64,000 nucleotides of DNA from Synechococcus sp. (GCA_047284725.1 JBJBEO010000001.1:2328203-2392202); one strand, 5' to 3'; positions 2,296-45,107 are shown, counted from the first letter of the stretch. Numbers and translations are program-made. Notes: generated from the sequence alone by a model not told the origin.

Positions 2296-3348
2296 GTGAT
2301 CGACGATCTCACTCTGGTGATCAACCTCGGCAGCTCCAGCCTCAAGGCCGCCGTGATCGATGCAGACGGCAAGACGCTTTGGAGTCAAGGGCGGAGCCTG
2401 CCTCCAGGCGCTGCAATCGACCAGGCGTTGGAGCAATGGCTGATGACGGCGCTTCAACACCAACGCGCCGCAATCCGACGGGTCGGGCACCGGGTGGTGC
2501 ATGGCGGCGAAACCTTCACTGCACCCACACTGATCACAGCGGAGGTGGAACAACACCTGCAAGCCCTCACGCCGCTTGCTCCCTTGCACAATCCACCAGC
2601 CCTGCAAGGGATCGCATGGGTCCGTCAGTGGGCACCGGAGCTGCCGCAATGGGCATGCTTCGATACCGCCTTCCATAGCAGCCTGCCAGAGGCAGCCCGC
2701 ACGTATGCCCTCAGCGAAGCGCTGCGTGAGCAGGGGTTTCGCCGCTACGGGTTCCATGGCCTCAACCACCAACACGTGAGTGAAACGGTGCAGGAGCTCT
2801 GGCAATTCAAAGGCCATGATCCCGACCAACTGCGCTTGATCAGTGCCCATCTCGGCGCTGGTGCCTCGCTCGCCGCCATCAAAGGCGGCGTCTGCATCGA
2901 CACCACAATGGGCTACACCCCGTTAGAGGGGCTGGTGATGGCAAGCCGCAGTGGCAGTGTGGATCCTGGCGTGCTGCTGGCACTGATGCGCCAGGGCATG
3001 GATGCCAACAGCATCAGCGACCAGCTCCAACAACACAGTGGCCTGAAGGGGCTTTCCGGGCTTAGCGGTGATATGCGCGACATCCGACAGCAAGCCGAAG
3101 CTGGGCATCAAGGGGCTGGATTAGCCCTGGCCGTCTTCCGCCACCGCCTGCTGCAGCTGATCGGATCGATGGCCTCGAGCCTTGCAGGCGTGGACGTACT
3201 TGCTCTCACCGGAGGCATCGGCGAGCACGATCATGCACTGCACAACGAACTGGTGGCAGCGCTCTCGTGGCTGCCGGGACTGGAGATCACCGTGGTGCCT
3301 GCCGATGAAGAAACTATGATCGCCAGACTGTGCCAGCGCGGTCATTGA
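2296..3348 (+). CDS. ackA: Acetate/propionate kinase
   Basis: LVINLGSSSLK, GHRVVHGG, LAPLHN, FDTAFH, RRYGFHG, HLGAGAS, LTGGIGE motifs. Confidence 0.93.
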   Translation: MIDDLTLVINLGSSSLKAAVIDADGKTLWSQGRSLPPGAAIDQALEQWLMTALQHQRAAIRRVGHRVVHGGETFTAPTLITAEVEQHLQALTPLAPLHNPPALQGIAWVRQWAPELPQWACFDTAFHSSLPEAARTYALSEALREQGFRRYGFHGLNHQHVSETVQELWQFKGHDPDQLRLISAHLGAGASLAAIKGGVCIDTTMGYTPLEGLVMASRSGSVDPGVLLALMRQGMDANSISDQLQQHSGLKGLSGLSGDMRDIRQQAEAGHQGAGLALAVFRHRLLQLIGSMASSLAGVDVLALTGGIGEHDHALHNELVAALSWLPGLEITVVPADEETMIARLCQRGH

Positions 3349-7316: not shown

Positions 7317-8771
7317 GTGAGCACGCCCCTGATTCCAGTGATTCTCTGCGGCGGCACGGGCACCCGCCTCTGGCCCCTCTCCCGCGCCAGTTACCCCAAG
7401 CAGTACTGGGCTTTAGGCGGCAGTGGTGACGACACGCTGCTGCAACAGACCCAGCAGCGACTGGAGGGCCTGGAGGGCCTGGCGGATCCGCTGGTGATCT
7501 GCAACGACGATCACCGCTTCATCGTGGCTGAACAGATGCGCCAGATCGGCATCAAGCCGAGCGCCATTCTGCTGGAGCCCATGGGCCGCAATACCGCTCC
7601 GGCGGTGGCCATTGCGGCCCTCCAAGCCACCTCCTGTGGAGACGACCCGCTGCTGCTGGTGCTGGCCGCCGACCATGTGATCCGCGATGGCGCCCAGTTC
7701 CGAACCACGGTGGAGGCGGGCCGCGCCGCGGCTGAGGCCGGCCAATTGGTGACCTTTGGGATCGTGCCCACCACCCCGGAAACCGGCTACGGCTATATCG
7801 AAGCCACCGCGCCCCTCCAGGCCGGCACCCTCAGACCCACACCGATCGCCCGCTTTGTGGAAAAGCCGGATCGGGCCACAGCCGAAGGCTTCCTGGCCAC
7901 CGGTCGCTTCACCTGGAACAGCGGCATGTTCCTGTTCCGCGCCAGCGCCATGCTGGCGGAACTGGAACGGCTGGCACCGGAGGTGGTGAGTTGCTGCCGA
8001 GCAGCCCTGGAACAGGACGCTGCCGACCTCGACTTCCGTCGCCTCGACAAGAGCGCCTTTGGGCGCTGCCCCAACGTGGCCATCGACGTGGCCGTGATGG
8101 AGCAAACCCAGCTGGGCGCTGTGCTTCCCCTGGATGCCGGCTGGAGTGATGTGGGCAGCTGGAGTGCTCTCTGGGACACCTCCGACAAAGACAGTGACGG
8201 CAATGTGCTGCGCGGCAGAGTGATCAGCGAAGGCAGCAGCAATTGCTATCTACGCAGCGAACACCGACTGGTGGTGGGGTTGGGCATCGACAACCTGGTG
8301 GTGGTGGAGACCGACGACGCCGTGCTGATCGCCGATCGCGAACAGGCCCAGAAAGTCAAGCAAGTGGTGGCCCAACTCGAGGCTGATGGCAGCCCCGAAG
8401 GCAAAGCCCATCGCAAGATCTACAGGCCCTGGGGCCACTACACCGGTGTGATGGAAGGCAGCCGCTGGCAGGTGAAGCGCATCTCCGTCAAGCCAGGTGC
8501 AAGCCTTTCACTGCAGATGCACCATCACCGCGCTGAGCACTGGGTGGTGGTACGCGGTACCGCCCTGGTGGAAAGGGACAGCGAGGAGCAACTGGTGGGT
8601 GAAAACCAGAGCACCTATATCCCGATGGGCTGCCACCACCGCCTCAGCAATCCTGGTCGCATCCCCGTGGAGATGATCGAGGTGCAAAGCGGTGAGTACC
8701 TCGGCGAAGACGACATCGTGCGCTTTGACGATGTGTATGGGCGCAGTGATCAGCTCAGACAGGCCGCCTGA
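7317..8771 (+). CDS. manC: Mannose-1-phosphate guanylyltransferase / mannose-6-phosphate isomerase
   Basis: GGTGTRLWPLSR, EPMGRNTAPA, FVEKP, WSDVGSW and cupin RPWG/HHHRAEHW. Confidence 0.95.
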   Translation: MSTPLIPVILCGGTGTRLWPLSRASYPKQYWALGGSGDDTLLQQTQQRLEGLEGLADPLVICNDDHRFIVAEQMRQIGIKPSAILLEPMGRNTAPAVAIAALQATSCGDDPLLLVLAADHVIRDGAQFRTTVEAGRAAAEAGQLVTFGIVPTTPETGYGYIEATAPLQAGTLRPTPIARFVEKPDRATAEGFLATGRFTWNSGMFLFRASAMLAELERLAPEVVSCCRAALEQDAADLDFRRLDKSAFGRCPNVAIDVAVMEQTQLGAVLPLDAGWSDVGSWSALWDTSDKDSDGNVLRGRVISEGSSNCYLRSEHRLVVGLGIDNLVVVETDDAVLIADREQAQKVKQVVAQLEADGSPEGKAHRKIYRPWGHYTGVMEGSRWQVKRISVKPGASLSLQMHHHRAEHWVVVRGTALVERDSEEQLVGENQSTYIPMGCHHRLSNPGRIPVEMIEVQSGEYLGEDDIVRFDDVYGRSDQLRQAA

Positions 8772-8795
8772 AACGACAGATCGCTGGCAGGAGCG

Positions 8796-10682
<1,887 letters not shown>

Positions 10683-21240: not shown

Positions 21241-23322
21241 TCATGGAGGCGGCGGCTCGGGTGGAGGCGGTGAGAGCGGCGAACGGTCTGGCACCCCAAC
21301 GGGGCGAGGACCCGGTGGATCAGACAAGTCATCATCAGCACCCGAAAAGCCTGTTGCCGGATCTGGAATGGGGTTGGGATCCACCGCCGGCAAAGGCATG
21401 GCAGGAGGTCGATCAGCCCGACAGGAGAGGGTCAGCACCCCTGAGGAAACCCCTTCATTGGTGACCAGCACCTGCACCGGCGAGCCCGCGTCAGCGGAGA
21501 GCGTCACCACCCGCAGGGGTCCTCGTTCCGCCACCACGGTGCCGTCACCGCCAAACACCGTCATCTGCATCAACGGAGTGCCATTGATACCGAGCACCAG
21601 ACGGCGGCCCTTCGGCACGTCAATAGAAATCAAACGCGCACCACCCGCCTTCACCCGACTGGACAACACGGTGGGCTCCATGGGCCGGGCCGTCACTGAC
21701 TCAATCCGCACGTCATCAAGACTGCGCATGGCTGCTGCATACCAGAGCTGTCGATAGGGCTCCGGTGGCTTGGCACCCGCTGCGACTCCAGGCAACAGGT
21801 TCTGGGCCGACGCGGTGACGAGTTGCTCGACCACCCTGCCGTCCACCCCCTGACGGGTGAGCACATCCCGCTGCTTGCTCCAATCAGCAGCAGTAAGGCG
21901 ACCGAGTCGGCCTCGTAATGCCGGAGGCAACTGTTCCACCCGGACAAGCCATTCCTCCGCGAGCTCATTCCAGGCCTGGCGTAGCGGCGCATCAACCAAG
22001 GAATCGCTCGGCAATCGACCGTTGCGTTCCGGATACTGCGCCAGCAGGCTGTCGTCCACCAAGCTGAGGAACCAGCTGCGGTCGATCTGAAGAGCCCTCA
22101 AACGACTCAGCAGTTGCTTCCGCTGATCCACTTCCTCCGCCGGGAGACTGGACTGGGGGACCCTGCCAATCACATCACGATCAGTGGATGGCGCCCCTCC
22201 CGGCTGACTGCCGCGAGTGATCAGGAACCATCCGATTGCCGTGCCGACGACAGCCGACACCAGCAGCGCTCCCACCATCGGCCACAAGCGACCTTCGGCC
22301 GCCTGCTGCCGCTGCTGCCCGCGCGGGAGGGCGCGACGCTCGCTTGAGGCCGCCCCCATCACGCCTCCAGATCCATCCTCTGCGGCAGCACCAGCCCGCT
22401 CCATCTGGGGCAGATCCGGTGAAGCCTGAGCCGGCTGAGACGGATCCACGGCCTCCAAGTCCTGAACGGCTGGAGCCACCACTAGGGTGCGTTCCGCACG
22501 AGCGATCGGCCCCGTGCTCTCAGGCATCACCACCGACTGGAGGGCTTTCAAGGCCTCAACCGCGACATCAAACCGCTCGCCGGACTGCTCACTGAGCAAA
22601 CGAACCAAAGCCTGCCGAAACGGGGGCTCGAGCTCCAGGCTCTCGGGCACGACCCAGGAGGCAGCCTGGCCATCCAGCAACGCTTCAGGCCGGCGACCCG
22701 TCAGCAGCACCAGGGCTGTCACCCCGAGCCCATGCAGATCCATCCATGCCGCTGCCGGCTCGCCGCGGCCCTGGGCCTGCGGCGCAAATCCAGCTGTCGC
22801 CCCCTTGATCGGCTGCTCACCCTGGCGCTGTAGCAGGCCGAAATCAATCAACACAGGAAGACCGTCCTGATCCCTGCGGAGCAGGTTGCCGGGGTTGAGA
22901 TCACCATGCACCAACCCCTTGGCATGAAGGACCGCCAGGGCGGGCAGAAGCTGCCGCAACAACAGCAGCACTTCACCACTGCCAAACACCAACTGGCGCT
23001 CCATCCGTTGCTGCTGGATCTGATCCAAAGGAGTGCCCTGCTGCCATTCCCGCACCAACCAGAGCGTCTCCCCCTGGTCAAGCAGCCCTCCGAAACGGGG
23101 AATCTGGGGGTGGAGCACCGCCTGCATCGCCGGCCACAAGGAGCGAAAACGAGCCTGAGCGGTGGGGCTTGCCAGCTGCCGCAACGCAACGGGAGCCTCG
23201 GATGCCAGCAGGTCCGAACCACGCCAAAGCAAACCCTGGGGCGATGCTGCATCCGCCGTCTGAGACGGATCCAACGACTGATCGATGCGGTAGCGCTCCG
23301 CGAGCACAGACCCGATCACCAT
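21241..23322 (-). CDS. Membrane-anchored Ser/Thr protein kinase-like protein
   Basis: HPQIPRF, HGDLNPGN, LIDFG, one TM helix, Pro-rich C-terminus. Confidence 0.88.
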   Translation of the reverse strand: MVIGSVLAERYRIDQSLDPSQTADAASPQGLLWRGSDLLASEAPVALRQLASPTAQARFRSLWPAMQAVLHPQIPRFGGLLDQGETLWLVREWQQGTPLDQIQQQRMERQLVFGSGEVLLLLRQLLPALAVLHAKGLVHGDLNPGNLLRRDQDGLPVLIDFGLLQRQGEQPIKGATAGFAPQAQGRGEPAAAWMDLHGLGVTALVLLTGRRPEALLDGQAASWVVPESLELEPPFRQALVRLLSEQSGERFDVAVEALKALQSVVMPESTGPIARAERTLVVAPAVQDLEAVDPSQPAQASPDLPQMERAGAAAEDGSGGVMGAASSERRALPRGQQRQQAAEGRLWPMVGALLVSAVVGTAIGWFLITRGSQPGGAPSTDRDVIGRVPQSSLPAEEVDQRKQLLSRLRALQIDRSWFLSLVDDSLLAQYPERNGRLPSDSLVDAPLRQAWNELAEEWLVRVEQLPPALRGRLGRLTAADWSKQRDVLTRQGVDGRVVEQLVTASAQNLLPGVAAGAKPPEPYRQLWYAAAMRSLDDVRIESVTARPMEPTVLSSRVKAGGARLISIDVPKGRRLVLGINGTPLMQMTVFGGDGTVVAERGPLRVVTLSADAGSPVQVLVTNEGVSSGVLTLSCRADRPPAMPLPAVDPNPIPDPATGFSGADDDLSDPPGPRPVGVPDRSPLSPPPPEPPPP

Positions 23323-23456
23323 CGCCTCCCCAGCTGTGGGCTGATGCTAAGGGCGCCATCAGGCCCAGGCCTCCTGCCCTGCCATCAGGGTGTGACAGAC
23401 GGTGTCTGCAATGGCCTCAGGACCTCCCTAGCCTGAATCTGAGCACTCCTGGAGCC

Positions 23457-24647
23457 ATGCCTCCCAGCACCCTGCTGCAACGGCTGCGGACAGTGCGAGA
23501 AACCAGCGAATCCCTGATCGAACCGCTGGAGCCAGAAGACCTCTGCCTGCAGGGCATGGCGGATGCCAGCCCACCGAAGTGGCACCTGGCGCACACCACC
23601 TGGTTTTTCGAAACCTTTGTGCTGAAGCCGTTCCAACCTGACCACCGCAGCGCCGATCCACGCTGGGGCTATCTGTTCAATTCCTATTACGAGACCGTTG
23701 GCCCACGGCAACCCCGGCCCGAACGGGGACTGCTCAGCCGTCCGCCGATGGCGGAAGTTTCTGACTGGCGTCATCGGGTGACGGAGTCGCTGGCCACCCT
23801 TCTTCAACAGGAGGACAATCCGCGCTGGAGTCCGTTGATCGAGCTGGGCCTGCACCACGAACAGCAGCATCAGGAACTGCTGTTGATGGATCTGCTCGAT
23901 GGCTTCAGCCGCCAACCGCTGGAACCGAGCTACTGCGATAACTGGCCCGTGGCGGCACCAACCGCACCGCGACCACAACAGTGGCTCCAGCACACCGGCG
24001 GCTTGGTGGAGATCGGTGCCGTCAGCGACGGCGGCTTTCACTTCGACAACGAAGGCCCCCGCCATCGCGTCTGGCTGGAACCCTTCGCCATCGCCAGTCA
24101 GCTGGTGCGCAACAGCGACTATCAGCGCTTCATCGACGATGGGGGCTATCGCCGTCCCGACCTGTGGATGAGCGAGGGCTGGGCCATGAGCCAGCAGCAG
24201 GGCTGGCAGGCCCCCCGCTACTGGCGCCGAGAGGCCGCCGATGCCCCCTGGGCATGGGAATTCAGCCTGGCAGGACGCCAACCCCTGGATTCGCACCAGC
24301 CGGTGCGCCACATCAGCTGGTTTGAAGCCGATGCCTATGCACGCTGGGCTGGGCATCGGCTTCCCAGCGAAGCGGAATGGGAAGTGGCTGCGCAGCACCA
24401 CGGCTCCGCTCTCGAAGAGGCCCACAGCGTTCTGTGGCAATGGACCGCCAGCCCCTATCGTCCCTATCCAGGATTTCAGTGTGCGACCGGTGCCGTGGGG
24501 GAATACAACGGCAAATTCATGACCTCGCAATTTGTGCTGCGCGGCAGCAGTCACCTGACGCCGGCAGGCCATAGCCGGCCCACTTATCGCAATTTCTTCG
24601 CCCCCGCCTGCCGCTGGATGGCGGCCGGAATCCGTCTGGCCCGATGA
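23457..24647 (+). CDS. egtB: Ergothioneine biosynthesis sulfoxide synthase EgtB
   Basis: SPPKWHLAHTTWFFE, FNSYY, HEQQHQE iron motif, FGE-sulfatase domain, EYNGKFM. Confidence 0.93.
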   Translation: MPPSTLLQRLRTVRETSESLIEPLEPEDLCLQGMADASPPKWHLAHTTWFFETFVLKPFQPDHRSADPRWGYLFNSYYETVGPRQPRPERGLLSRPPMAEVSDWRHRVTESLATLLQQEDNPRWSPLIELGLHHEQQHQELLLMDLLDGFSRQPLEPSYCDNWPVAAPTAPRPQQWLQHTGGLVEIGAVSDGGFHFDNEGPRHRVWLEPFAIASQLVRNSDYQRFIDDGGYRRPDLWMSEGWAMSQQQGWQAPRYWRREAADAPWAWEFSLAGRQPLDSHQPVRHISWFEADAYARWAGHRLPSEAEWEVAAQHHGSALEEAHSVLWQWTASPYRPYPGFQCATGAVGEYNGKFMTSQFVLRGSSHLTPAGHSRPTYRNFFAPACRWMAAGIRLAR

Positions 24648-25621
24648 CCCGCACGCCCTCAACGCCGACTGCTGCCGACCTGATCGATCTGCATCCCCCC
24701 GCCGCTGACATGCGACGTCTGGTGCGAGAAGGCCTCACCCGCCAGCCGAAACAGCTGCCGGCCTGGTTTCTTTACGACACCGATGGATCACGGTTGTTCG
24801 ATCAGATCTGCGAGCAACCGGAATACACCCTCACCCGAACAGAGATCGCCCTTCTGAACAGCCAGGCGACATCCATCGCCGCGGCCTTAGGCGCGGGAGT
24901 GATCGTTGAGTTCGGCGCCGGCAGCGCCCGCAAGGTCGGACCGTTGCTCTCCGCGCTACAGCCAGCCGCCTACGTGCCCCTGGACATCAGTACCGAACAC
25001 CTCCGCCAGGCGATCCAGACCCTGCAGCAGGATTATCCCCAGATACCAATGCTGGGAGTCTGCTGCGACCACAGCCAACTGGAGCGGTTGCCGGCCCATC
25101 CCCTTCTGAACGGCCAACGCAAGCTGGGCTTCTTCCCCGGCAGTTCTCTCGGAAATTTCAGTCGCACCGAGGCGGTGGGACTGCTATGCCGCTTCCGGCA
25201 CCTTTTGGACGGCGGGCCACTCTTGCTGGGACTCGACCATCCCAAGCCTGGCGCCACAATGGAGGCGGCCTACGACGATGCTGCCGGCGTTTCAGCGGCC
25301 TTTGCCCGTAATCTCTTGCACCGGCTGAATCGCGATCTTTCAGCGACTTTCAATCCAGACTCATTCCGTTATCAAGCCCAGTGGCAAGCCGATCACAGCC
25401 AGGTGGAAATGGCCCTGGTCAGTCATGGCCACCAGACCGTGACCATTGATCAACAACGTTGGGACTTCGAGGAGGGCGAGCCGTTGGTGACGGAGTACAG
25501 CATCAAATACAGCCCTGCCATGGCACAGGAGCTGGTGGCCGCCGCGGGTTGGCGATGGGTCCAACGCTGGCATGACCCGGACGACAGCCTCTCTCTACAC
25601 CTGCTGGAACCGGCAGACTGA
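24644..25621 (+). CDS. egtD: L-histidine N-alpha-trimethyltransferase EgtD
   Basis: YDxxGSRLFDQICEQPEY, EFGAGSARK, FPGSSLGNF, AYDDAAGV, TEYSIKY. ATGA overlap with egtB. Confidence 0.93.
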   Translation: MTRTPSTPTAADLIDLHPPAADMRRLVREGLTRQPKQLPAWFLYDTDGSRLFDQICEQPEYTLTRTEIALLNSQATSIAAALGAGVIVEFGAGSARKVGPLLSALQPAAYVPLDISTEHLRQAIQTLQQDYPQIPMLGVCCDHSQLERLPAHPLLNGQRKLGFFPGSSLGNFSRTEAVGLLCRFRHLLDGGPLLLGLDHPKPGATMEAAYDDAAGVSAAFARNLLHRLNRDLSATFNPDSFRYQAQWQADHSQVEMALVSHGHQTVTIDQQRWDFEEGEPLVTEYSIKYSPAMAQELVAAAGWRWVQRWHDPDDSLSLHLLEPAD

Positions 25622-36130: not shown

Positions 36131-37288
36131 ATGACCCGGAGAAAGCTTCGCACGATTTTGTTCTTGGTTCTGACAACATTCATCGCCACAACGAGCCTGA
36201 CAGTCCCATCCAGCCTCGCCGAAAAAATACCTGGGCAAGCCAACAGAATAGGCAATCTATGGGAATTACATCAAAAGAACTCTCCATGCATCAGCCGCAG
36301 TGAGCTAGCGCCCTCTGCGTTACAGCCCCCTCGACCCACCAACAGCAAACTGCCGATTCCCGTTGGCATCAGCCTTCACGTCAACGAAATCCCGGAGATC
36401 TCCGATACGCGCAACCAATTCATCCTTGATGGCCTCCTGACGACAACCTGGTGTGACGCACGCGCAACGACCGAACAAACCAATGCCAACGACTACAAGG
36501 TGTTGTATGGGGGCGCAGCCGAAGACTGGCTGAACAATCACTGGTTTCCACAAGTAGAGTTTTCAAACAAAGTTGGCGAGTCTTTTTATCAGACACAATC
36601 CATCACATTGCACAGCAATGGAAGCATTGAATACGCAAGACGACTGCAAGAAAATCTGGGATCAGACTTCAGCCTGAACAAGTTCCCATTCGACAATCAA
36701 GCACTCTTGATTCAGCTTCAATCGTTCTCATGGCCAAGAACAGTCGTCAAGCTGATTTCACTGGGAGACGTTGTGAGCCTCGGCAAATCAACACGTCTAC
36801 CCGAATGGACCATCAGGGGACTCAACTATCAATTAAATGACCACGACGATCCCGAAAAAGGGAGCCTCGAGTACTCAAGGCTCGAAGCTCGCATCAACGT
36901 GTCACGCAAATACGGATATTATTTATATAAAATATTTATCCCCCTGGCCCTCCTGGGCTTTACAAGCATCTTTTTCCTGGCGATTCCGATTCACGAAATC
37001 GCCGATCGACTCGGCTTCATCTCAGGCCTTCTCTTTACAACCCTTGCTTATCAGCTTGTGATCACCAGCAACGTGCCTCGCGTGCCTTACTTCACACTTG
37101 GCGACACCTATACAATTGTCCTGTTTGGCTTCATGATCGCGGAGGTTTTGATCGCATACATCATCCACCGCAGCGTGAGCAAGTCAAAAGTGAAGGGAAT
37201 CCCCACCATCGAAAGAACCATGGAAATCATCTTGCCAGTAACATTTGGCATTTTCCAGATTGCATTTATTACCTATGCCCTGATTTAA
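36131..37288 (+). CDS. Prokaryotic pentameric ligand-gated ion channel (ELIC/GLIC-like)
   Basis: Signal peptide, W-x-D, WFPQVEFSN, Pro-loop FPFDNQ, LPEW, pre-M1 R...FIP, four TM helices, M2-M3 loop VPRVPYFT. Confidence 0.88.
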   Translation: MTRRKLRTILFLVLTTFIATTSLTVPSSLAEKIPGQANRIGNLWELHQKNSPCISRSELAPSALQPPRPTNSKLPIPVGISLHVNEIPEISDTRNQFILDGLLTTTWCDARATTEQTNANDYKVLYGGAAEDWLNNHWFPQVEFSNKVGESFYQTQSITLHSNGSIEYARRLQENLGSDFSLNKFPFDNQALLIQLQSFSWPRTVVKLISLGDVVSLGKSTRLPEWTIRGLNYQLNDHDDPEKGSLEYSRLEARINVSRKYGYYLYKIFIPLALLGFTSIFFLAIPIHEIADRLGFISGLLFTTLAYQLVITSNVPRVPYFTLGDTYTIVLFGFMIAEVLIAYIIHRSVSKSKVKGIPTIERTMEIILPVTFGIFQIAFITYALI

Positions 37289-37317: not shown

Positions 37318-38241
37318 TTAATAGTATTTTCTAAATCCCCTGCGCCTCAAGTAATCGATCCCCCTCGCCAGAAGCCCTATCTCATCGTCTCTTTCAGCAC
37401 CCGGGGGCACAACGGCACCATCGAGACATCGCTCGCTTTCAAGAAATCCACCCAATCGCGCCAGCGGCTGCACGATGAGATTTCTGAACAGCCAATAGGA
37501 TGCAACCGTTGCAACGATTAAAAGGAAGATCTGCAGCAACAGCAACATCGAGCTCTGCCAGGCAACAGCCAATGGATGGGCGGAAAGCTCAATGGCAACA
37601 ATTTGAGCACCAACAATATCGCCCATCTCCCAACCAAAGCCATTTTGATCGCCATAGCTTGCAACCTGGCTGCGCGGAGCTCTCTCAGGGACTGAGTGAC
37701 AAGCAAGACAGCTTTGCTTTGTAATCTTGATGGGCTGAGCAACATAAAAAATATTCTTTATGCCGCCCTTGTCCAAATAGCCTGCGCTACGCGTCGATTC
37801 AGGGTTTTTGATAAATCGACGAATCACTTGTGCCTCAGCCTCGGAAGCACGATCCACAGGATTCGTCGGATTCAAAGCCGCCTCTCGATAGGAATACCCC
37901 TTGTAATCGTCCTTCAAACGAAGGTACTCAAACACCTTAGTCGAAGAATAACTTGGCACAGCTTCAGGCAAGAAGACATCCGGCGATTCTGCATTGACCG
38001 GAGCAATTAATGGATTGATTTTTCGAGAGGTGTACTCCCTCACCGCGAGCATTGAATCCATCAAGTGCTCTGCCTGAAGCCGCGTATAAGCCAAGCCGAT
38101 CTGGTGCAGGCACGCCAGTGAAACAACAATTGCGACCACAAGAGCCGCAAAATTAACCGTAATTAAACGCGCCAGAAAACGCGTTTTCAGGGGAGAAACA
38201 ACGTCAAGATTCCCTGAACTTTCACCCTGATTCTTCGACAA
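37318..38241 (-). CDS. Membrane sensor with periplasmic DUF3365 (Tll0287-like) heme-c domain and HAMP (start uncertain)
   Basis: TM helix, VPSYS, YREAALNPTNP, CLACH heme-c motif, YGDQNGFGW, second TM helix, HAMP-like PLARL...DDEIGLLA. Confidence 0.85.
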   Translation of the reverse strand: MSKNQGESSGNLDVVSPLKTRFLARLITVNFAALVVAIVVSLACLHQIGLAYTRLQAEHLMDSMLAVREYTSRKINPLIAPVNAESPDVFLPEAVPSYSSTKVFEYLRLKDDYKGYSYREAALNPTNPVDRASEAEAQVIRRFIKNPESTRSAGYLDKGGIKNIFYVAQPIKITKQSCLACHSVPERAPRSQVASYGDQNGFGWEMGDIVGAQIVAIELSAHPLAVAWQSSMLLLLQIFLLIVATVASYWLFRNLIVQPLARLGGFLESERCLDGAVVPPGAERDDEIGLLARGIDYLRRRGFRKYY

Positions 38242-38354: not shown

Positions 38355-39416
38355 TCACTCAACCATCGAAGCCTCGATCTGGCTCTGACAGAGAAAACGG
38401 TCAACATCGTCTGCCGTGGGCTGTGGATCAATGCCTCCCGCATCGGTGCACACCAATGCTCCACAGGCCGCAGCAAAGCGAACCACCTCTTCCACCACCG
38501 TGGCAGACAGCTCGAAAGGCTCTCCGCCGCTGGGGACCAGCGTTAGAAGCTGGTGCAACAAACCCGCCGTGAACGCATCGCCAGCCCCTGTCGTGTCCAC
38601 CACCCTTGGTGGTACCAACACGGGCATGGACCCCCCGTGGCCAGCAATGCACCACCGCACCGGATTGCCGCCATCGGTGACCACCACATCCGGGGCAGCA
38701 GGCAGGCTCCTGCTGATGACCTCAGGCGAGTCATTGTTGAACAACCAGATCGCTTCCTCCCGCGCCACCTTGATCAACGCTGCCCGGTCAAGGAGGGGAG
38801 CCATTGTGGCCAGCACCTCTGGGGTTGGGCCAGAGAGGGGATCCGAGCGGGGATCCCAGAAGGTGGGTCGCCAGTTGACATCAAGGGCGAGATGGAGGAC
38901 CGACTGATCCACCTGCTCCATGGCCCAGTGCAAGGCCTCAGCCGAGTCAGGGGTCGCCAAGGGAATCGTGCCCACCACCAACCAACGCGCCGACGCCACC
39001 AGACCCGGCCAGGCCAGAGACAACTGACGGCGATTCAGCCACTGATCAGCAAAGCCCTTCCCCCCATCGCCGGCAAACCCCTGAAACAGCCGCTCACCAG
39101 CGGCATCACGACGCACCAACACCACCCGACTGGGGCGTAGCCGGTCGAGCTGCAGTCCTTGCAGATCGACCCCACGATCAGCGAGGAGCTCCCTGAAACT
39201 ATCGCCGATGGAATCCTGGCCCAGGCGGCCGATGAAGGCCACTGGCGTACCCAGCCGCGCCAGGGCACAGGCAACATTCGCCGGGGCCCCACCAAGCCGA
39301 TCGTCGCAATCCCCCGGAGCAGCGGTTGCGGGATCACCACCGAGGGGGCCCAACCGATCCACCAGAGCCTCACCCAGGCAGAGCACCTGAGGAGCAGCGC
39401 CTGCACGCATGGCCAT
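38355..39416 (-). CDS. PfkB-family carbohydrate kinase (fructokinase-like)
   Basis: GEALVD, GGAPANVA, DVNWRP, VDTTGAGDAF. Confidence 0.93.
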   Translation of the reverse strand: MAMRAGAAPQVLCLGEALVDRLGPLGGDPATAAPGDCDDRLGGAPANVACALARLGTPVAFIGRLGQDSIGDSFRELLADRGVDLQGLQLDRLRPSRVVLVRRDAAGERLFQGFAGDGGKGFADQWLNRRQLSLAWPGLVASARWLVVGTIPLATPDSAEALHWAMEQVDQSVLHLALDVNWRPTFWDPRSDPLSGPTPEVLATMAPLLDRAALIKVAREEAIWLFNNDSPEVISRSLPAAPDVVVTDGGNPVRWCIAGHGGSMPVLVPPRVVDTTGAGDAFTAGLLHQLLTLVPSGGEPFELSATVVEEVVRFAAACGALVCTDAGGIDPQPTADDVDRFLCQSQIEASMVE

Positions 39417-39699
39417 CAGCCGGGATCAACTGTCTGCAGCGTGGCCGACGGCATCAGAACTGCCAACTGCGCAAACCACTCAAGCCATCAACTTCAAGAA
39501 AACCTCAGCCACCGCGACCGGGCGACCCTGAATCTCGCCAGCCAAATGCCAACCATCAACAGCCCATGTCTCGAACCTTGAGCTCAGCAGAAAAAACCAG
39601 GGGAAACGACAGACAAAGGTGCATCGTTGATCACTCTTTTCACCCCACACGCATTGGCACAACACCACAACGAGTCAGGCCCAATCAATCAACCAGAAG

Positions 39700-39942
39700 C
39701 TAAGAGCTGCCCGCAGCCTGTTCATCAAGCAGTTCCGCAAGACGCCTGGCGAGATCATCACGAACTTCCGGATCTCCCACCAGTCTCAATTCACCAGTCT
39801 CAGGCCACCAATTGAGCTTGAGATTGCTGACGCCATCTTCAAACACTGCCATTTCGAAAGGTCCATGATGCTGCCAATGGCAGGGAACACCAAGCCGCTC
39901 GACGAGCACCTGCAAGGCCATCAGGCTTCCCTTGAATTGCAT
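39700..39942 (-). CDS. Small hypothetical protein (start uncertain)
   Basis: C-terminal about 80 aa of ORF 39700..40044 are protein-like (LKLNWWPETGELRLVGD). Confidence 0.6.
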   Translation of the reverse strand: MQFKGSLMALQVLVERLGVPCHWQHHGPFEMAVFEDGVSNLKLNWWPETGELRLVGDPEVRDDLARRLAELLDEQAAGSS

Positions 39943-40066
39943 GCACATACAGCATGAGAAATCCATGCTAGTCAAAGCATGAGAGTGCGCCAGAAGGGCC
40001 AAAAGGCAACCAACACGCCTAATCACCGATCGTTCATCAATCACGCAGCTCTAAAGCTCCATCCCC

Positions 40067-41572
40067 ATGACAAGCAAGCCTCTGCTGACGAGCGAGCTCT
40101 CCTCGCTTTATGCGCTGTTTGACATCAATGGTGATGGGTCGATCACAGCGACTGAAGTCGAGCACGTGCTGACCGCGATGGCCCCCATCATTACGCGGGC
40201 GGAAGCAGACGCCCTCAGGCGACTGATCCGAGACCAACGCACCATCAATCGTGATGATTTTTTGGCTTGGGCACGACACCAACCCGAGCTGGGCACACAG
40301 CAAGTACTGAGAGACCTCTTTGATCTGCTCGATGCAGACCGCAATGGCTGGCTTTGCCGAGAGGAACTCTCCTGGATGCTGCGCATGCTCTTTCCAGACA
40401 GTTCTGCCAACGACGCACAGCGGCTCGCGGCACAACTTGACCGCGATGGAGATGGACAGATCAGTATCAACGAATTTCTCGATCTGCTGGACGAGTCGAT
40501 GGAGCTGGGCTGTTCCCTGGCTGATCTCAAACGTCTGAAAAAAAAAATTGATCCAGGTCCGAAGCGCCGCACAACTGAAAGGCGTGACACTGGTGGAGGT
40601 GGACTGCGACCTTGGAGCAGGCATCCCGGGTGCGAACTCAGGCATAGAACTTCTCAAAAACACCGTTCAACGGCACAGCGATCTGCTGCAACTGAGCGAG
40701 AGCCTGATCGAAGAGATTCGCACTGGAATTCGTGCTTCTACCAGTCGTGATGACCTCGGCACGACCATCAACACACCCCACGCTCGTCATATCGAAACCA
40801 TCACCAAGGTGATGCACGATGCAGCCGGCCTTGTTGCCACAACCCTTGAACAGGGCAGCTTCCCGCTGGTATTGGCTGGAGACCATTCCACGGCGGCTTC
40901 CACCATCGCAGGTATTCGGCGTGCTCATCCCCAGCAACGACTTGGTGTGATCTGGATCGATGCGCACGCCGACATTCATTCACCCTTCACCACACCCTCC
41001 GGAAACATGCACGGAATGCCGCTGGCGATTGCCTCGCGTCATGACAACCTGCCGGAAGCGATCAATGATCCCGACGCGACCACACGCTCGCTCTGGAACA
41101 ACCTCCAGCAACTGCATGGCTCCCAATCACCAGCCATCTCCTGCATGACCTGATTTATGTCGGCGTTCGAGACACAGAAAGTGCTGAAGACATCACGCTT
41201 GCCAAGCATGCGATTCCCGTGATCGGCACCGCAGACATTCGACGCGATGGGGCCACACATGTGGCCAAACTATGCCTGTCTTATCTCTCTGAGGTGGACC
41301 TGATCTACGTGAGCCTGGATGTGGATGCCCTGGACTCAACCATCTGCAAAGGAACGGGAACTCCTGTTCCTGAAGGGCTCTGGGCCCATGAAGCCATGCT
41401 GCTGATCAAAACCCTGCTGACAGACCCACGGGTGTGTTGCTGGGAAATCTGTGAGATCAATCCTCATCTGGATGTTCTCAACACCCTGGCGGAAGTTTCC
41501 TTGAGCCTCTATCGGGCAGGGATGGAAGTGCTAGCAGAACGCTTCACTCCCACCTCAGCAGAGATTGTCTGA
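40067..41572 (+). pseudogene. EF-hand (calmodulin-like)-arginase fusion, interrupted by two frameshifts
   Basis: EF loops DINGDGSITATE, DADRNGWLCREE, DRDGDGQISINE. Arginase motifs GDHS, DAHAD, SGNMHG, YVGVRD, SLDVD, GTGTP and EINP are spread over three frame segments. Shifts at the A10 run 40538-40547 and near 41140. Confidence 0.85.
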
Positions 41573-41722
41573 AGCGAGCCACATGCCATCCAGGGAGTAT
41601 GGAGGTTGGGCATTGAGCAACGTGCTTCGAGCGCTGTCTCCTGACCAATCCTGTGTCTGCGACACATTCAAAAAGACTGCTCGGGTGGCCGTGGATCAAC
41701 AGGCGCGTGTTGGCAACACCGC

Positions 41723-42910
41723 TCACTCAGCCAGGGAAGGAAGACCGAGGTGATCCATGAGGGCTGCAATCATCCGGCCATTGGCGGCAGGGAATGGATA
41801 ACCACGAAGATCCTGAGGGCGGACCCAACGCACGCACTGACTGGCCAGTGGCTGGGGGTCGCCAGAGAGCCATTGGCAGAGATGCACCACAAACCGAAGC
41901 TTTTTATGGCTGTAGGCATGCTCCATCGTGATCAGTGGCTTCCCGACCTCCACCTCGATCGCCAGCTCCTCCCGCAACTCGCGGCGAATGGTGGCTTCAA
42001 TCAGCTCGCCGGGTTCCTGCTTGCCTCCGGGAAATTCCCACATCCCCCCAAGAAGTCCTTCGTTTAATCGTTGATCAATCAGCACCTCGCCAGCCTGGTT
42101 GAGCACAACCCCCACACCAATCACCTGAAAGGGCAGATCGCGGGGAGTCTCTTTCAAGGGGTAGCGGTCAGGAGTGCCGCCAGCGTAGGCAGCACAGCGG
42201 CTCTGCCAGGGGCAACAGGAACAGTAGGGCGTGTGGGGTGTGCAGACGGTGGCACCGAGATCCATCAACGCCTGATTGAGATCCCTGGCGCGCGCTGGTT
42301 TCGCGTTCATCAACGCCTCACTCCAGCTCCAGAACAGGGCCTGATCACGCATCGGTGGGCGGGCATGGGCCATCAGGCGAGCCAGAACCCGTCGCACATT
42401 GCCATCGAGGATCGCCAGTGGGCTGTTGAAGGCCGACGAAAGAATGCCGCCCGCAGTGCTGCGGCCGATACCGGGCAACGCCAGCCATGTGTCCTCCTGC
42501 CGCGGCCACTGCTCTGGGGTGCATCGTGCAACCTGCTGCAGAAGCACACGGGATGAAGCATGCAACCGCCGCGCCCGGGAGTAGTAGCCGAGGCCCTGCC
42601 AGCACAACAGCACCGCCTGCTCCTCAGCACCAGCCAAGGTTTCCAGCGTCGGGAACCTCTCCATCCAGCGTCGCCAGTAAGGAAGCACCACCTGCAACTG
42701 GGTCTGCTGCAACATCACCTCGGCGATCCAGCACTCCAGGACATTGAGCTGCTCGTGTGGCGCCGGCCACCTGCCGTCCTTGGTGAACATCCAAGGCTTC
42801 AGCGCAGGATCCTTGCGGCCATGCACCTCCCACCAGGCCAACAGGGATTGACTGAGCTCAGGCGCTAGCGCGCTGACGTCGCGGTGTTCGGCGATGCTTC
42901 GTTGACCCAT
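41723..42910 (-). CDS. mutY: A/G-specific adenine glycosylase MutY with C-terminal MutT/Nudix domain
   Basis: EVMLQQT, WQGLGYYSRARRL, HhH LPGIGRSTA, DGNVRRVLAR, Fe-S Cys cluster, WEFPGGK. Confidence 0.93.
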   Translation of the reverse strand: MGQRSIAEHRDVSALAPELSQSLLAWWEVHGRKDPALKPWMFTKDGRWPAPHEQLNVLECWIAEVMLQQTQLQVVLPYWRRWMERFPTLETLAGAEEQAVLLCWQGLGYYSRARRLHASSRVLLQQVARCTPEQWPRQEDTWLALPGIGRSTAGGILSSAFNSPLAILDGNVRRVLARLMAHARPPMRDQALFWSWSEALMNAKPARARDLNQALMDLGATVCTPHTPYCSCCPWQSRCAAYAGGTPDRYPLKETPRDLPFQVIGVGVVLNQAGEVLIDQRLNEGLLGGMWEFPGGKQEPGELIEATIRRELREELAIEVEVGKPLITMEHAYSHKKLRFVVHLCQWLSGDPQPLASQCVRWVRPQDLRGYPFPAANGRMIAALMDHLGLPSLAE

Positions 42911-43190
42911 CAGGCAGCCACCCAGGCCTGATCACTGCCCAGACACTTTCCCGACAAGCCCAAGCATTGGCGACTCCAACGCATGGGATCCGGCACAGAG
43001 GGCAAGCACCGTTCCATCTCGAATTGATCTGCACAATCGCATCAGCCTGCCGCCATCGTGATCGATGGAGCAAAGCAGCCGTGCGAGGAATGATTGATCC
43101 CCTCAGGGCTGGGCTCACTGCAAGCACCCTCGTTGCTGAACCAGCCACGTCCCTGGATAGGCTCACCGCCCTTGAAACCAAGATCTTTCG

Positions 43191-44135
43191 ATGTCTGCAG
43201 ACAGCAAACAGCTACTCAAACGCTTGGCTGTGGACCTGGCAAAGCTGTGCAGGAATCCCGAGGATCTTGATCACACATTTGATCTTCTCAATGCCAGCTA
43301 TAGAACCGAAGTGGCCCAGGCTGCCCGTAATCGCCTCAAAGCCAATCCGGCCATCAGAGATCTCATTCAAGAAAAATACTGGGGCCATTGGCCCTCAATC
43401 CCAGAGCTTCAATCCATGCCTGTCGGCTCTCTAGGACATGTGTATGGGACGTTCATGGCATCACAAGGCCTCACCCAACTGCCTGATCCCGAACTGAATG
43501 CTTCGGTGTCATGTGACGACACCTACCTCCAACGCCGAATTCGCCAAACCCATGACATTTGGCACGTGATTGCCGGACTACCGATCACGATTGCAGGTGA
43601 AGCAGCAGCCAACGGACTGACCACCGAGCAACTGCGCTGGCCAGGAATCGCTCTGTTGATCAGCGCCGACCTGATCCATCGCGTCAGTGAACCGGAGATG
43701 GCCCAGAGCCAGAACGATCCCAACAGAGTGGATCTCGGCATCGCAGTCGCCTACGGCCTCAGCATCGGGGCCCAAGCGCCATCGCTCCTCGCCCAGCGTT
43801 GGGAAGAAGGATGGAATCGACCACTGAAAGAGTGGCGACAGGAACTGGGACTCAGCGACCTCATCGCGCACAGCCCTTTTCCACCGCTAACCGGTGACAG
43901 CACAGAACAACACACGGCATCAATTGTGGGCAGCTGGTGTTTAGAAAGCCTCTGCATTCGCCATCCAGAGACGGCTGAGAACATTCCCATCTGGGGAGAG
44001 AAGCCGCTTGGTCAACTCACGTATACGGCCGATGGACGCATGAGCGCAGTGCTCTGCAAAGCCGGACAAACCACGCGTCACGCCAGCGGTGGTGCCACCA
44101 ACAATGACGAGCAGGCATCGCTGTACCGGCACTGA
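43191..44135 (+). CDS. Coq4-family protein fused to a C-terminally truncated lipocalin-like domain
   Basis: GSLG, HDIWHVIAG...GE metal motif, RWEEGW, then IVGSWCL...GQLTYTADGRMSA. Confidence 0.78.
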   Translation: MSADSKQLLKRLAVDLAKLCRNPEDLDHTFDLLNASYRTEVAQAARNRLKANPAIRDLIQEKYWGHWPSIPELQSMPVGSLGHVYGTFMASQGLTQLPDPELNASVSCDDTYLQRRIRQTHDIWHVIAGLPITIAGEAAANGLTTEQLRWPGIALLISADLIHRVSEPEMAQSQNDPNRVDLGIAVAYGLSIGAQAPSLLAQRWEEGWNRPLKEWRQELGLSDLIAHSPFPPLTGDSTEQHTASIVGSWCLESLCIRHPETAENIPIWGEKPLGQLTYTADGRMSAVLCKAGQTTRHASGGATNNDEQASLYRH

Positions 44136-44947
44136 TAGTCACCCTTTTCAGATCCGGACTGATGGCGTCCCAGTTGATGTCTCGCACCGCCTGGAGGAGA
44201 GCAGCAGCCAGCTGATTGAGGTTGGCCTCTGCCTGTGTCTCGTGGTCCACCAGTTCCACCATGATCAGAAACTCTTCTCCGCCCCAGCGGCAGATCAGGT
44301 CACGAGCCCGTAACCGAGATTTCAACGTTGCCGCAATCTGGATCAGAACCTGATCGCCGATCAGATGGCCAAGCGTGTCGTTGATCGCTTTGAAAAAATC
44401 GATATTCAGCAGGATCAGACCACTGCATTGAGCACTGATCTGGCGCCGTTTCAGTCGCAAACCACGTCGGTTAAGCATTGCCGTCAGGGGATCGAGGATG
44501 ACGGCCTGTTGACCCAGCAACAGCGGCGTGAGTGAGAAAAAAACCAATCAGACCATGAATACTGGCTCGACTTTCACCCAGCAGAATCAAGCAGCCCAGC
44601 AGCAGCGGTAGATAAAGCAATCCACTCACCACATTGATGAATGCCGTTTCGGGGTCAGGGACAGCCCAGATCGCCAACCAGCGGAGACAAGCCAGCAAAC
44701 TCAGGATGTTGCAAATCAGGCGTGACCGACTCAGGTGTGCCGCCGGTGACCCACGACCGAACCTCCACAGCAGATAAGCAATTGAGGTGACAACCAGCAA
44801 GACGAGCTCCCAGAGTTCGCGCCGGTTGCCTCCTACGAAGCCGGAGATCACCATCAGGAGGTGAACTCCTGTCGCCATCAGGCAGAGCAACCCTGTGTAC
44901 TGGTCACCCAGGCATTCGATGGAGTCTTCGGAGATCTGCGGAATCAA
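44120..44947 (-). pseudogene. Membrane diguanylate cyclase (GGDEF) pseudogene
   Basis: Multi-TM ORF 44471..44947 shifts near the T7 run (44537-44543) into a GGDEF frame (DPLT..LNRR, FKAINDTLGH..GD, RWGGEEF, VTISAG). The 3' end of the domain is missing. Confidence 0.8.
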
Positions 44948-45107
44948 GGACCGCGTAAGGACCGGACAGCTCGAATCAGTGTGTTCAGCGAGTCACAGTC
45001 ATCCTTTAACGATGGATAGAAGCTGTGAACCCACGACTCCCCCAGAGCCCTCTCCAGCACAACAGCCACCAGGCCACTGCAGCTGACAAGCAAAAACGCC
45101 GAGCGCC

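Follow-up and report, generated by a model that had tools for sequence, protein, structure and literature searches.

Arginases are textbook single-domain enzymes in which the alpha-carboxylate and alpha-amino groups of L-arginine are held by N130, T135, S137, N139, D183 and E186 (rat numbering), and the UT channels of bacteria are seen as pores without gating. Regulation of a catalytic domain by a fused calmodulin-like domain is familiar from CDPKs and NOX5; to our knowledge, few targets of Ca2+ signalling have been defined in bacteria. Here, a 64,000 nucleotide (nt) stretch of Synechococcus sp. DNA (GCA_047284725.1 JBJBEO010000001.1:2328203-2392202; this whole stretch is referred to as the window) was analysed. 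A gene conserved among picocyanobacteria, which joins a calmodulin-like EF-hand domain to an arginase-type ureohydrolase, is present there in inactivated form on the plus strand at positions 40067-41572. In five of five cyanobacterial loci with an intact fusion, the gene directly downstream encodes a UT-family channel with EF-hands of its own (UT-EF), a link newly described here; this partner gene is absent from the window. We consider it likely, from sequence comparison, that the window holds the decaying remnant of a two-gene arginase/urea-channel module, and that the intact form would be Ca2+-responsive.

No single open frame is present at the locus, as two single-base insertions or deletions (indels; Table 1) distribute the coding sequence across three reading frames. 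The open reading frame (ORF) starting at the ATG at 40067 runs out of frame past break 1 and stops at 40750 (stop codon 40748-40750), and is followed by ORFs at 40548-41153 (second frame, stop codon 41151-41153) and 41219-41572 (first frame again). A tblastn search of the window with the intact homologue P0003 (501 amino acids, aa) returned exactly three high-scoring segment pairs (HSPs), which tile P0003: aa 1-161 at 40067-40549 (frame +2, 94% identity), aa 158-358 at 40539-41141 (frame +3, 99% identity) and aa 359-500 at 41141-41566 (frame +2, 99% identity). Internal stops are absent from all three pieces. At break 1 the intact reading L-K-K-K-L-I-Q requires nine A where the window has ten, and at break 2 one extra base is required for the intact reading A-I-S-L-H-D; with both repairs the net length is 1506 nt, corresponding to 501 codons and a stop.

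Profile searches identified both domains in the pieces. The first 160 aa, in piece 1, are matched by the Pfam models EF-hand_6/7/1/5/8 (E 4e-19 to 9e-9; EF-hand_6, EF-hand_7 and EF-hand_1 at 4e-19 to 3e-16), positions 4-147 of 280 of the arginase model PF00491 match 40548-41150 (E 3e-21, 76.5 bits), and positions 152-265 match 41126-41569 (E 1e-22, 81.3 bits). Both arginase halves exceed the PF00491 gathering cut-off of 22 bits (intact P0003 scores 161 bits), and TIGR01229 arginase is the best NCBIfam model for each of them (97.1 and 88.8 bits). Chance is excluded by these profile E-values together with the 94-99% identity to P0003. A sequence-only reading of the window had proposed a 501-aa ORF restored by removing one A at 40538-40547 and adding one base near 41140, and both positions coincide with the frame switches of the HSPs; the three canonical EF loops and one degenerate loop that it described were recovered, the motifs it listed for a complete arginase (GDHS, DAHAD, SGNMHG, LIYVGVRD, SLDVD, GTGTP and EINP) are all in the translations, and the Pfam comparison that it suggested agrees with the domains it had assigned. 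A functional gene would occupy one uninterrupted frame, and the window copy occupies three, separated by two indels; the longest product it could yield is an EF-hand protein of 227 aa that ends in a nonsense tail. The fitting annotation is a pseudogene of the EF-hand-arginase family and not a working enzyme.

The extent of this family was examined using the N-terminal arginase half as query against proteins longer than 352 aa only, which yielded 378 homologues, the best 120 of which were inspected. Both EF-hand and Arginase Pfam domains were found in 107 of these 120, with 103 measuring 485-560 aa; those given a name by their source are 'arginase family protein' from Synechococcus, Cyanobium, Vulcanococcus or unclassified Synechococcaceae. 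Both domains also occur together in two ESM Atlas clusters (63 and 99 members), each from Cyanobacteriota, and an intact 504-aa fusion is also encoded in a metagenome-assembled genome (MAG) of Polyangiaceae (L006). At 50% clustering, the 1120 matches with E <= 1e-30 contained only two full-length representatives (P0065, P0277) in addition to fragments, and this collapse indicates a compact family within the wider arginases. Judged by these sequences, the EF-hand-arginase fusion is a conserved family under selection and not an accident of the window genome. The supposition of an intact fused ancestor is thereby upheld, with P0003 itself intact at 501 aa, and the outcome that would have spoken against it, the two parts occurring only as separate genes, is not what the homologues display. 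The further statement that the architecture was not known to be characterised stands in so far as a full-text literature search, which left subscription journals outside its coverage, turned up neither an EF-hand arginase nor an EF-hand urea transporter from bacteria in any paper; the architecture itself is common and publicly annotated under the generic names 'arginase family protein' and, for the partner, 'urea transporter'.

A tree was built from the window, nine translations of loci and 42 of 122 stored proteins selected to span the family, 52 rows in all. With X set at each break, the read-through of the window was sister to P0003 with a support of 100 and an end branch of 0.012, and from this short branch the damage is judged to be recent. 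The nearest EF-less relatives are Bacteroidota arginase-family proteins of 316-322 aa (41-45% identity), for which similarity begins at the first strand of the catalytic domain and continues onward (Algoriphagus L028, Cyclobacteriaceae L036). These proteins share with the fusion family a His substitution at a substrate-contact position and the C-C-W-E-I motif region, and differ from it in having neither the EF-hand domain, nor the helix that joins it to the catalytic domain, nor an adjoining UT gene.

Other departures from the intact fusion were seen among the relatives. Two interruptions mark the EF-hand-arginase gene of a Moorena MAG (L007, 7998-10003): an in-frame TAG (8256-8258) and, exactly in the junction helix, an AT-rich insertion of approximately 450 nt (about 8511-8980) flanked by 22-nt imperfect direct repeats. 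Two separate genes for the EF and arginase parts were considered at this locus and rejected, as the parts are collinear with the fusion and parted by the in-frame stop and the insertion; the disruption is an independent inactivation of the gene. Ten proteins of 355-425 aa have the arginase domain alone, without an EF-hand Pfam match (P0074, P0084, P0089, P0096, P0098, P0099 and P0119-P0122), and form two clades nested within the fused clade of the tree; either they lost the EF domain secondarily or their starts were mis-called. The record titles of L005, L059 and L074 (Bifidobacterium breve or Bordetella parapertussis) do not fit their contigs: the L005 fusion is identical to the cyanobacterial cluster P0102, and L059 and L074 carry Bacteroidota-type arginases. 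These three are probably mislabelled MAG records.

Conservation was assessed on 112 aligned sequences, of which 103 were taken from databases, six were fusions translated from their loci and three were EF-less; 109 of the 112 contain the EF region. Calmodulin chains align with P0003 from aa 9 to 141/150 (E about 1e-12). In the counts over the 109 sequences, a loop was scored canonical on ligand positions 1, 3, 5 and 12 (Table 1); the fuller definition of an EF-hand was a paired 12-residue loop with oxygen ligands at 1, 3, 5 and 12, Gly at 6 and a hydrophobic residue at 8. Loops 1, 3 and 4 of the window have this form and loop 2 has it in none of the 109 relatives, so that three loops are predicted to be Ca2+-competent and the N-terminal domain is, on these sequence features, a bona fide EF-hand domain. 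The 14-residue junction segment that follows is conserved more tightly than the EF helices themselves, with 11 of 14 positions identical in at least 97 of 109 sequences, and is part of a helix (aa 151-168) in an AlphaFold2 model of P0003.

The catalytic domain carries the metal-binding residues of the arginase/ureohydrolase superfamily. The window translation has all six binuclear-metal (Mn) ligands, the equivalents of rat H101, D124, H126, D128, D232 and D234, and so does every one of the 112 aligned sequences. Also invariant are the catalytic His, the S-G-N-x-H-G-M-P loop and the substrate-holding T, S, N and E positions (T135, S137, N139 and E186; each 112/112); the D183 equivalent is found in 111 of 112, and the N130 position is His throughout. 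The closest solved chains by sequence are the Thermus arginase 2eiv (E 1e-37 to P0003), Bacillus caldovelox 1cev, and human and rat arginase I (E 1e-37 to 1e-32 overall). The AlphaFold2 model, built on the 112-row alignment, had a mean predicted local distance difference test score of 75.5 and a predicted template-modelling (TM) score of 0.76. When the catalytic domain was searched with Foldseek, B. caldovelox arginase (1cev/2cev) was matched with a target-normalised TM-score of 0.73-0.78, and the matches including B. cereus, B. subtilis and human arginases had target-normalised TM-scores of 0.67-0.79. On the intact protein TIGR01229 (191 bits) leads the next-best NCBIfam models, hutG (formimidoylglutamase, 80 bits) and agmatinase (54 bits), by more than 100 bits. 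Compared with RocF-type arginases (Thermus 2eiv/2ef4, B. caldovelox 1cev, human ARG1), the fusion family shares the fold (target-normalised TM-score 0.73-0.79), the GDHS/DAHAD/DVD metal ligands, the S-G-N-x-H-G-M-P substrate loop and the D183/E186/E277 equivalents. RocF-type enzymes are single-domain proteins of approximately 300 aa without EF-hands and have an Asn where the fusion family has an invariant His; the fusion family additionally carries an extra segment at aa 182-234 and scores under the NCBIfam equivalog cut-off. By sequence and predicted fold the domain thus belongs to the arginase/ureohydrolase superfamily, remaining under the 'arginase' equivalog threshold and deviating at one substrate-contact position, and it is most likely an arginase-type ureohydrolase with L-arginine as its substrate.

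The flanks of the gene were annotated at six loci with intact fusions, five of them cyanobacterial (L001-L005) and one from Polyangiaceae (L006). In each of L001-L005, the next same-strand gene downstream encodes a protein of 545-616 aa in which EF-hand domains come after a UT domain (PF03253, E 1e-65 to 3e-70); the gene begins 4 nt past the arginase stop in L003 and close to it in the other four loci. Residues 56-378 of the partner align with the whole channel domain of UT structures (Desulfovibrio vulgaris UT 3k3f/3me1; mammalian UT-A/UT-B 8blo, 6qd5 and 4ezc) with E 2e-34 to 2.5e-62. Relative to these known channels, the partner has an added cytoplasmic tail of about 190 aa, formed by a basic helix and a calmodulin-like domain with three canonical loops and one degenerate loop; this tail aligns with calmodulin (E about 1e-11), one of its PDB matches is the calmodulin-like domain of a CDPK (3khe), and the protein scores under the equivalog cut-off for bacterial Yut (154 vs 274.6). 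A UT-EF gene was found in none of the other 75 loci examined.

UT-EF proteins numbered 154 distinct sequences among the matches listed in two protein searches, from the same genera as the fusion family. Thirteen pairs of arginase and UT rows have a longest contig of identical size, and in six of them this contig exceeds 10 kb; for contigs of equal size above 10 kb the chance matches are estimated at roughly 0.1, and matches at 2-5 kb could partly be due to chance. Four size-matched pairs also carry the same organism name (BA-124 BA4, BA-120 BA3, a Vulcanococcus MAG and a Cyanobium MAG), and two, P0005/P0245 and P0006/P0243, fall in the strongly supported 7-row clade of the window gene. An adjoining EF-handed urea channel fits a urea-forming enzyme with which it would share a Ca2+ input. 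A UT-EF channel of 460 aa close to P0243, P0251, has Prochlorococcus marinus str. MIT 1342 as its source name; a passage of PMC10654061 states that Prochlorococcus is without arginase.

The window has no such partner. A permissive tblastn search with 14 UT-EF proteins, run against the whole window and against 41400-43200, detected no UT gene in the 64 kb; the only above-chance matches are EF-hand cross-matches to the EF domain of the fusion gene itself (40085-40498), with the rest at chance level. The two-gene module was defined as a fusion with a UT and EF-hands gene directly downstream on the same strand, and the window does not show this arrangement.

From these comparisons, the following sequence of events is proposed for the intact module, which probably responds to Ca2+. 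A rise in cytoplasmic Ca2+ would load the EF loops, and the junction helix would relay the conformational change from the calmodulin-like to the catalytic domain. Arginine would then be cleaved to ornithine and urea, and urea would cross the membrane through the co-expressed UT channel, which may itself be gated (opened or closed) by its own EF tail on the same Ca2+ signal. The window genome would be in the process of losing this module, its channel gene gone and its enzyme gene recently broken. The arrangement resembles CDPKs of plants and protists and NOX5/RBOH oxidases in placing a four-EF-hand domain and a catalytic domain on one chain with a conserved amphipathic basic helix; any autoinhibitory contact in the fusion is putative. 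Unlike in CDPKs and NOX5, the catalytic part is a metallo-ureohydrolase and not a kinase or oxidase, and the EF-first order differs from that of CDPKs. We tentatively suggest, as a possibility we hold to be less probable than its opposite, that the picocyanobacterial EF-hand-arginase and the EF-tailed UT channel act as one Ca2+-triggered unit and possibly form a physical complex, with a trimeric enzyme on a trimeric channel (both presumably trimeric, as in solved homologues). If so, a Ca2+ transient, for example upon an osmotic or nutrient shift, would drive the conversion of arginine to ornithine and to urea that is moved across the membrane. Bacteria would then provide the first described case in which Ca2+, as a second messenger, controls nitrogen catabolism and a urea channel, and the cells would have a regulated route by which urea reaches the surrounding community. 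Two unrelated proteins that handle the same metabolite, each with a calmodulin-like domain, are co-encoded in globally abundant phototrophs, most commonly in brackish and freshwater lineages, and whether Ca2+ controls nitrogen flow and urea exchange can be tested directly in this module.

Several observations weigh against the reading of the locus as the remnant of a Ca2+-responsive arginase/urea-channel module. Ca2+ binding, Ca2+ dependence and the substrate are predictions from sequence. No UT gene was found beside the Polyangiaceae fusion L006 within the 10.9 kb covered. Because the genome scan yielded no close marine relative among the matches listed (600 stretches; the best 64% identical), adjacency of the UT-EF gene within the window's own clade is indicated solely by equally sized contigs. 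The intact fusions score 191-207 bits with the equivalog model TIGR01229 rocF_arginase (P0003 191.4, L003 192.8, L006 207.1), under its cut-off of 227.6, with the EF-less Bacteroidota protein L028 at 225.6; the position equivalent to rat N130, which contacts the carboxylate in arginases and is Asn at the aligned position of the Thermus enzyme, is His in 112 of 112 sequences; and the insertion at aa 182-234 was modelled with low confidence, which otherwise occurred only at the termini. These last three features would also be expected of an arginase-family enzyme that hydrolyses another guanidino compound (agmatine, a guanidino acid or a modified arginine), an explanation that we regard as rather doubtful, given that arginase is by far the best model (191 vs 54 bits for agmatinase), that the S-G-N-x-H-G-M-P loop, D183 and E186, which bind the alpha-amino-acid end of arginine, are invariant or nearly so, and that all of the closest solved structures are true arginases. 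The EF domain could, in turn, bind Ca2+ or another divalent ion constitutively and serve a structural, assembly or localisation role, leaving enzyme activity unswitched by Ca2+. Loop 2 is canonical in none of 109 sequences, as in many structural EF pairs, and the presence of EF-hands on both proteins of the module fits a pairing function, such as docking of the enzyme onto the EF tail of the channel; retention of all ligand positions of three loops in 107-109 of 109 sequences and a near-invariant junction helix, which is the pattern of fused calmodulin-like regulators, make such a role unlikely. We infer Ca2+ control and an arginine substrate for the intact fusion.

The remaining point against the inactivation of the window copy is that both lesions lie in homopolymers, are opposite in sign and leave the rest of the gene almost unchanged, thus resembling two base-calling errors. 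If the frameshifts (A10, and CC for CCC, which cancel in length) were errors of base calling or assembly, the organism would have an intact, working EF-hand-arginase gene, and three pieces without internal stops, 94-99% identical to P0003 and on an end branch this short, would be expected. Such errors are nevertheless quite improbable, since six other runs of 7-9 identical bases in the window sit in ORFs that stay open, the run-bearing fabF, ruvB and mreC genes are in frame with profile matches from end to end, and a run of only two bases seldom attracts errors. The absence of the partner urea-channel gene is expected of a decaying module, and another accessory gene close by, for a GGDEF protein (44017-44992), is likewise split, around an A7 run. 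In bacteria, slippage is known to occur at runs of nine or more A, and transcriptional or translational slippage at A10 could restore the frame in part, making the gene phase-variable and not dead. The run occupies three Lys codons, the third of which is peculiar to the window lineage (Thr in 63 and Asn in 29 of 109 relatives); the slippage-prone site was probably created by the A-run itself. Break 2 is not slippery and truncates the catalytic domain before D232, D234 and E277; slippage at A10 alone therefore cannot yield an active enzyme, and we give this explanation very little credence. Inactivation by two genuine mutations remains the favoured account of the window copy.

Table 1. Features of the EF-hand-arginase pseudogene and its downstream flank (window positions; aa numbering of the repaired translation)
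Feature	Position	Strand	Evidence or remark
Piece 1: ATG start and calmodulin-like four-EF-hand domain, aa 1-160	40067..40546	+	Frame +2; Pfam EF-hand, P0003 tblastn
EF loop 1, aa 19-30, canonical	40121..40156	+	Canonical in 107/109 family members
EF loop 2, aa 55-66, degenerate	40229..40264	+	Canonical ligand pattern in 0/109
EF loop 3, aa 89-100, canonical	40331..40366	+	Canonical in 107/109
EF loop 4, aa 125-136, canonical	40439..40474	+	Canonical in 109/109
Basic junction helix, aa 150-163, from EF domain to arginase domain; spans break 1	40514..40556	+	Alignment, model
Break 1: A10 homopolymer, one base too many (+1 frameshift)	40538..40547	+	Intact homologue reads K-K-K-L-I-Q
Piece 2: N-terminal arginase half with GDHS, DAHAD, SGNMHG	40548..41141	+	Frame +3; PF00491, TIGR01229, P0003 tblastn
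Break 2: CC, intact reading requires CCC (-1 frameshift)	41140..41141	+	Frame +3 HSP ends and frame +2 HSP starts at base 41141
Piece 3: C-terminal arginase half with VRD, SLDVD, GTGTP, EINP; stop 41570-41572	41141..41572	+	Frame +2; PF00491, TIGR01229
150-nt spacer to convergent mutY; position of the UT-EF gene in relatives, empty here	41573..41722	.	tblastn
mutY	41723-42910	-	TIGR01084, E 7e-78

The composition of the window gene differs from that of its surroundings, with a GC content of 55.9% compared to 60.2% for the whole window and a third-position GC of 0.58-0.62 compared to 0.74-0.82 in glgP, tkt and fabF; such low GC is typical of accessory DNA. The lesions seen in the window are confined to accessory genes, namely the EF-hand-arginase gene and the GGDEF gene. 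The state of the locus (partner gone, enzyme newly broken, GC below that of core genes) shows that cells can dispense with the module and that lineages gain and lose it. A scan of 39400-41800 for promoters and terminators identified one promoter-like site (0.8 in shuffled sequences) and six terminator-like sites (2.2 in shuffled sequences), none of them informatively placed.

Further genes in the window were noted. The GGDEF diguanylate-cyclase gene, on the minus strand, appears to be split into two overlapping ORFs, one (44474-44947) encoding a membrane-like N-terminal part and the other (44020-44547) matching PF00990 positions 2-131 of 161; the frame changes between 44474 and approximately 44553, where the A7 run lies at 44537-44543, and the GGDEF domain lacks its end as well. 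Directly before the arginase relic on its upstream side, a pentameric ligand-gated ion channel homologue (36131-37285, plus strand; PF02931, NF033918) and a gene for a Tll0287-like protein (37321-38241, minus strand) have a GC content of 0.49 compared to 0.60 for the window and seem to form another accessory islet. An acetate-kinase-like ORF at 2296-3345 (plus strand) covers Pfam positions 63-354 of 392 and TIGR00016 positions 67-358 of 405 and may be truncated at both ends. The plus-strand region 23169-25618 encodes the ergothioneine biosynthesis pair egtB (TIGR03440, E 2.5e-152) and egtD (TIGR03438, E 1.3e-111).

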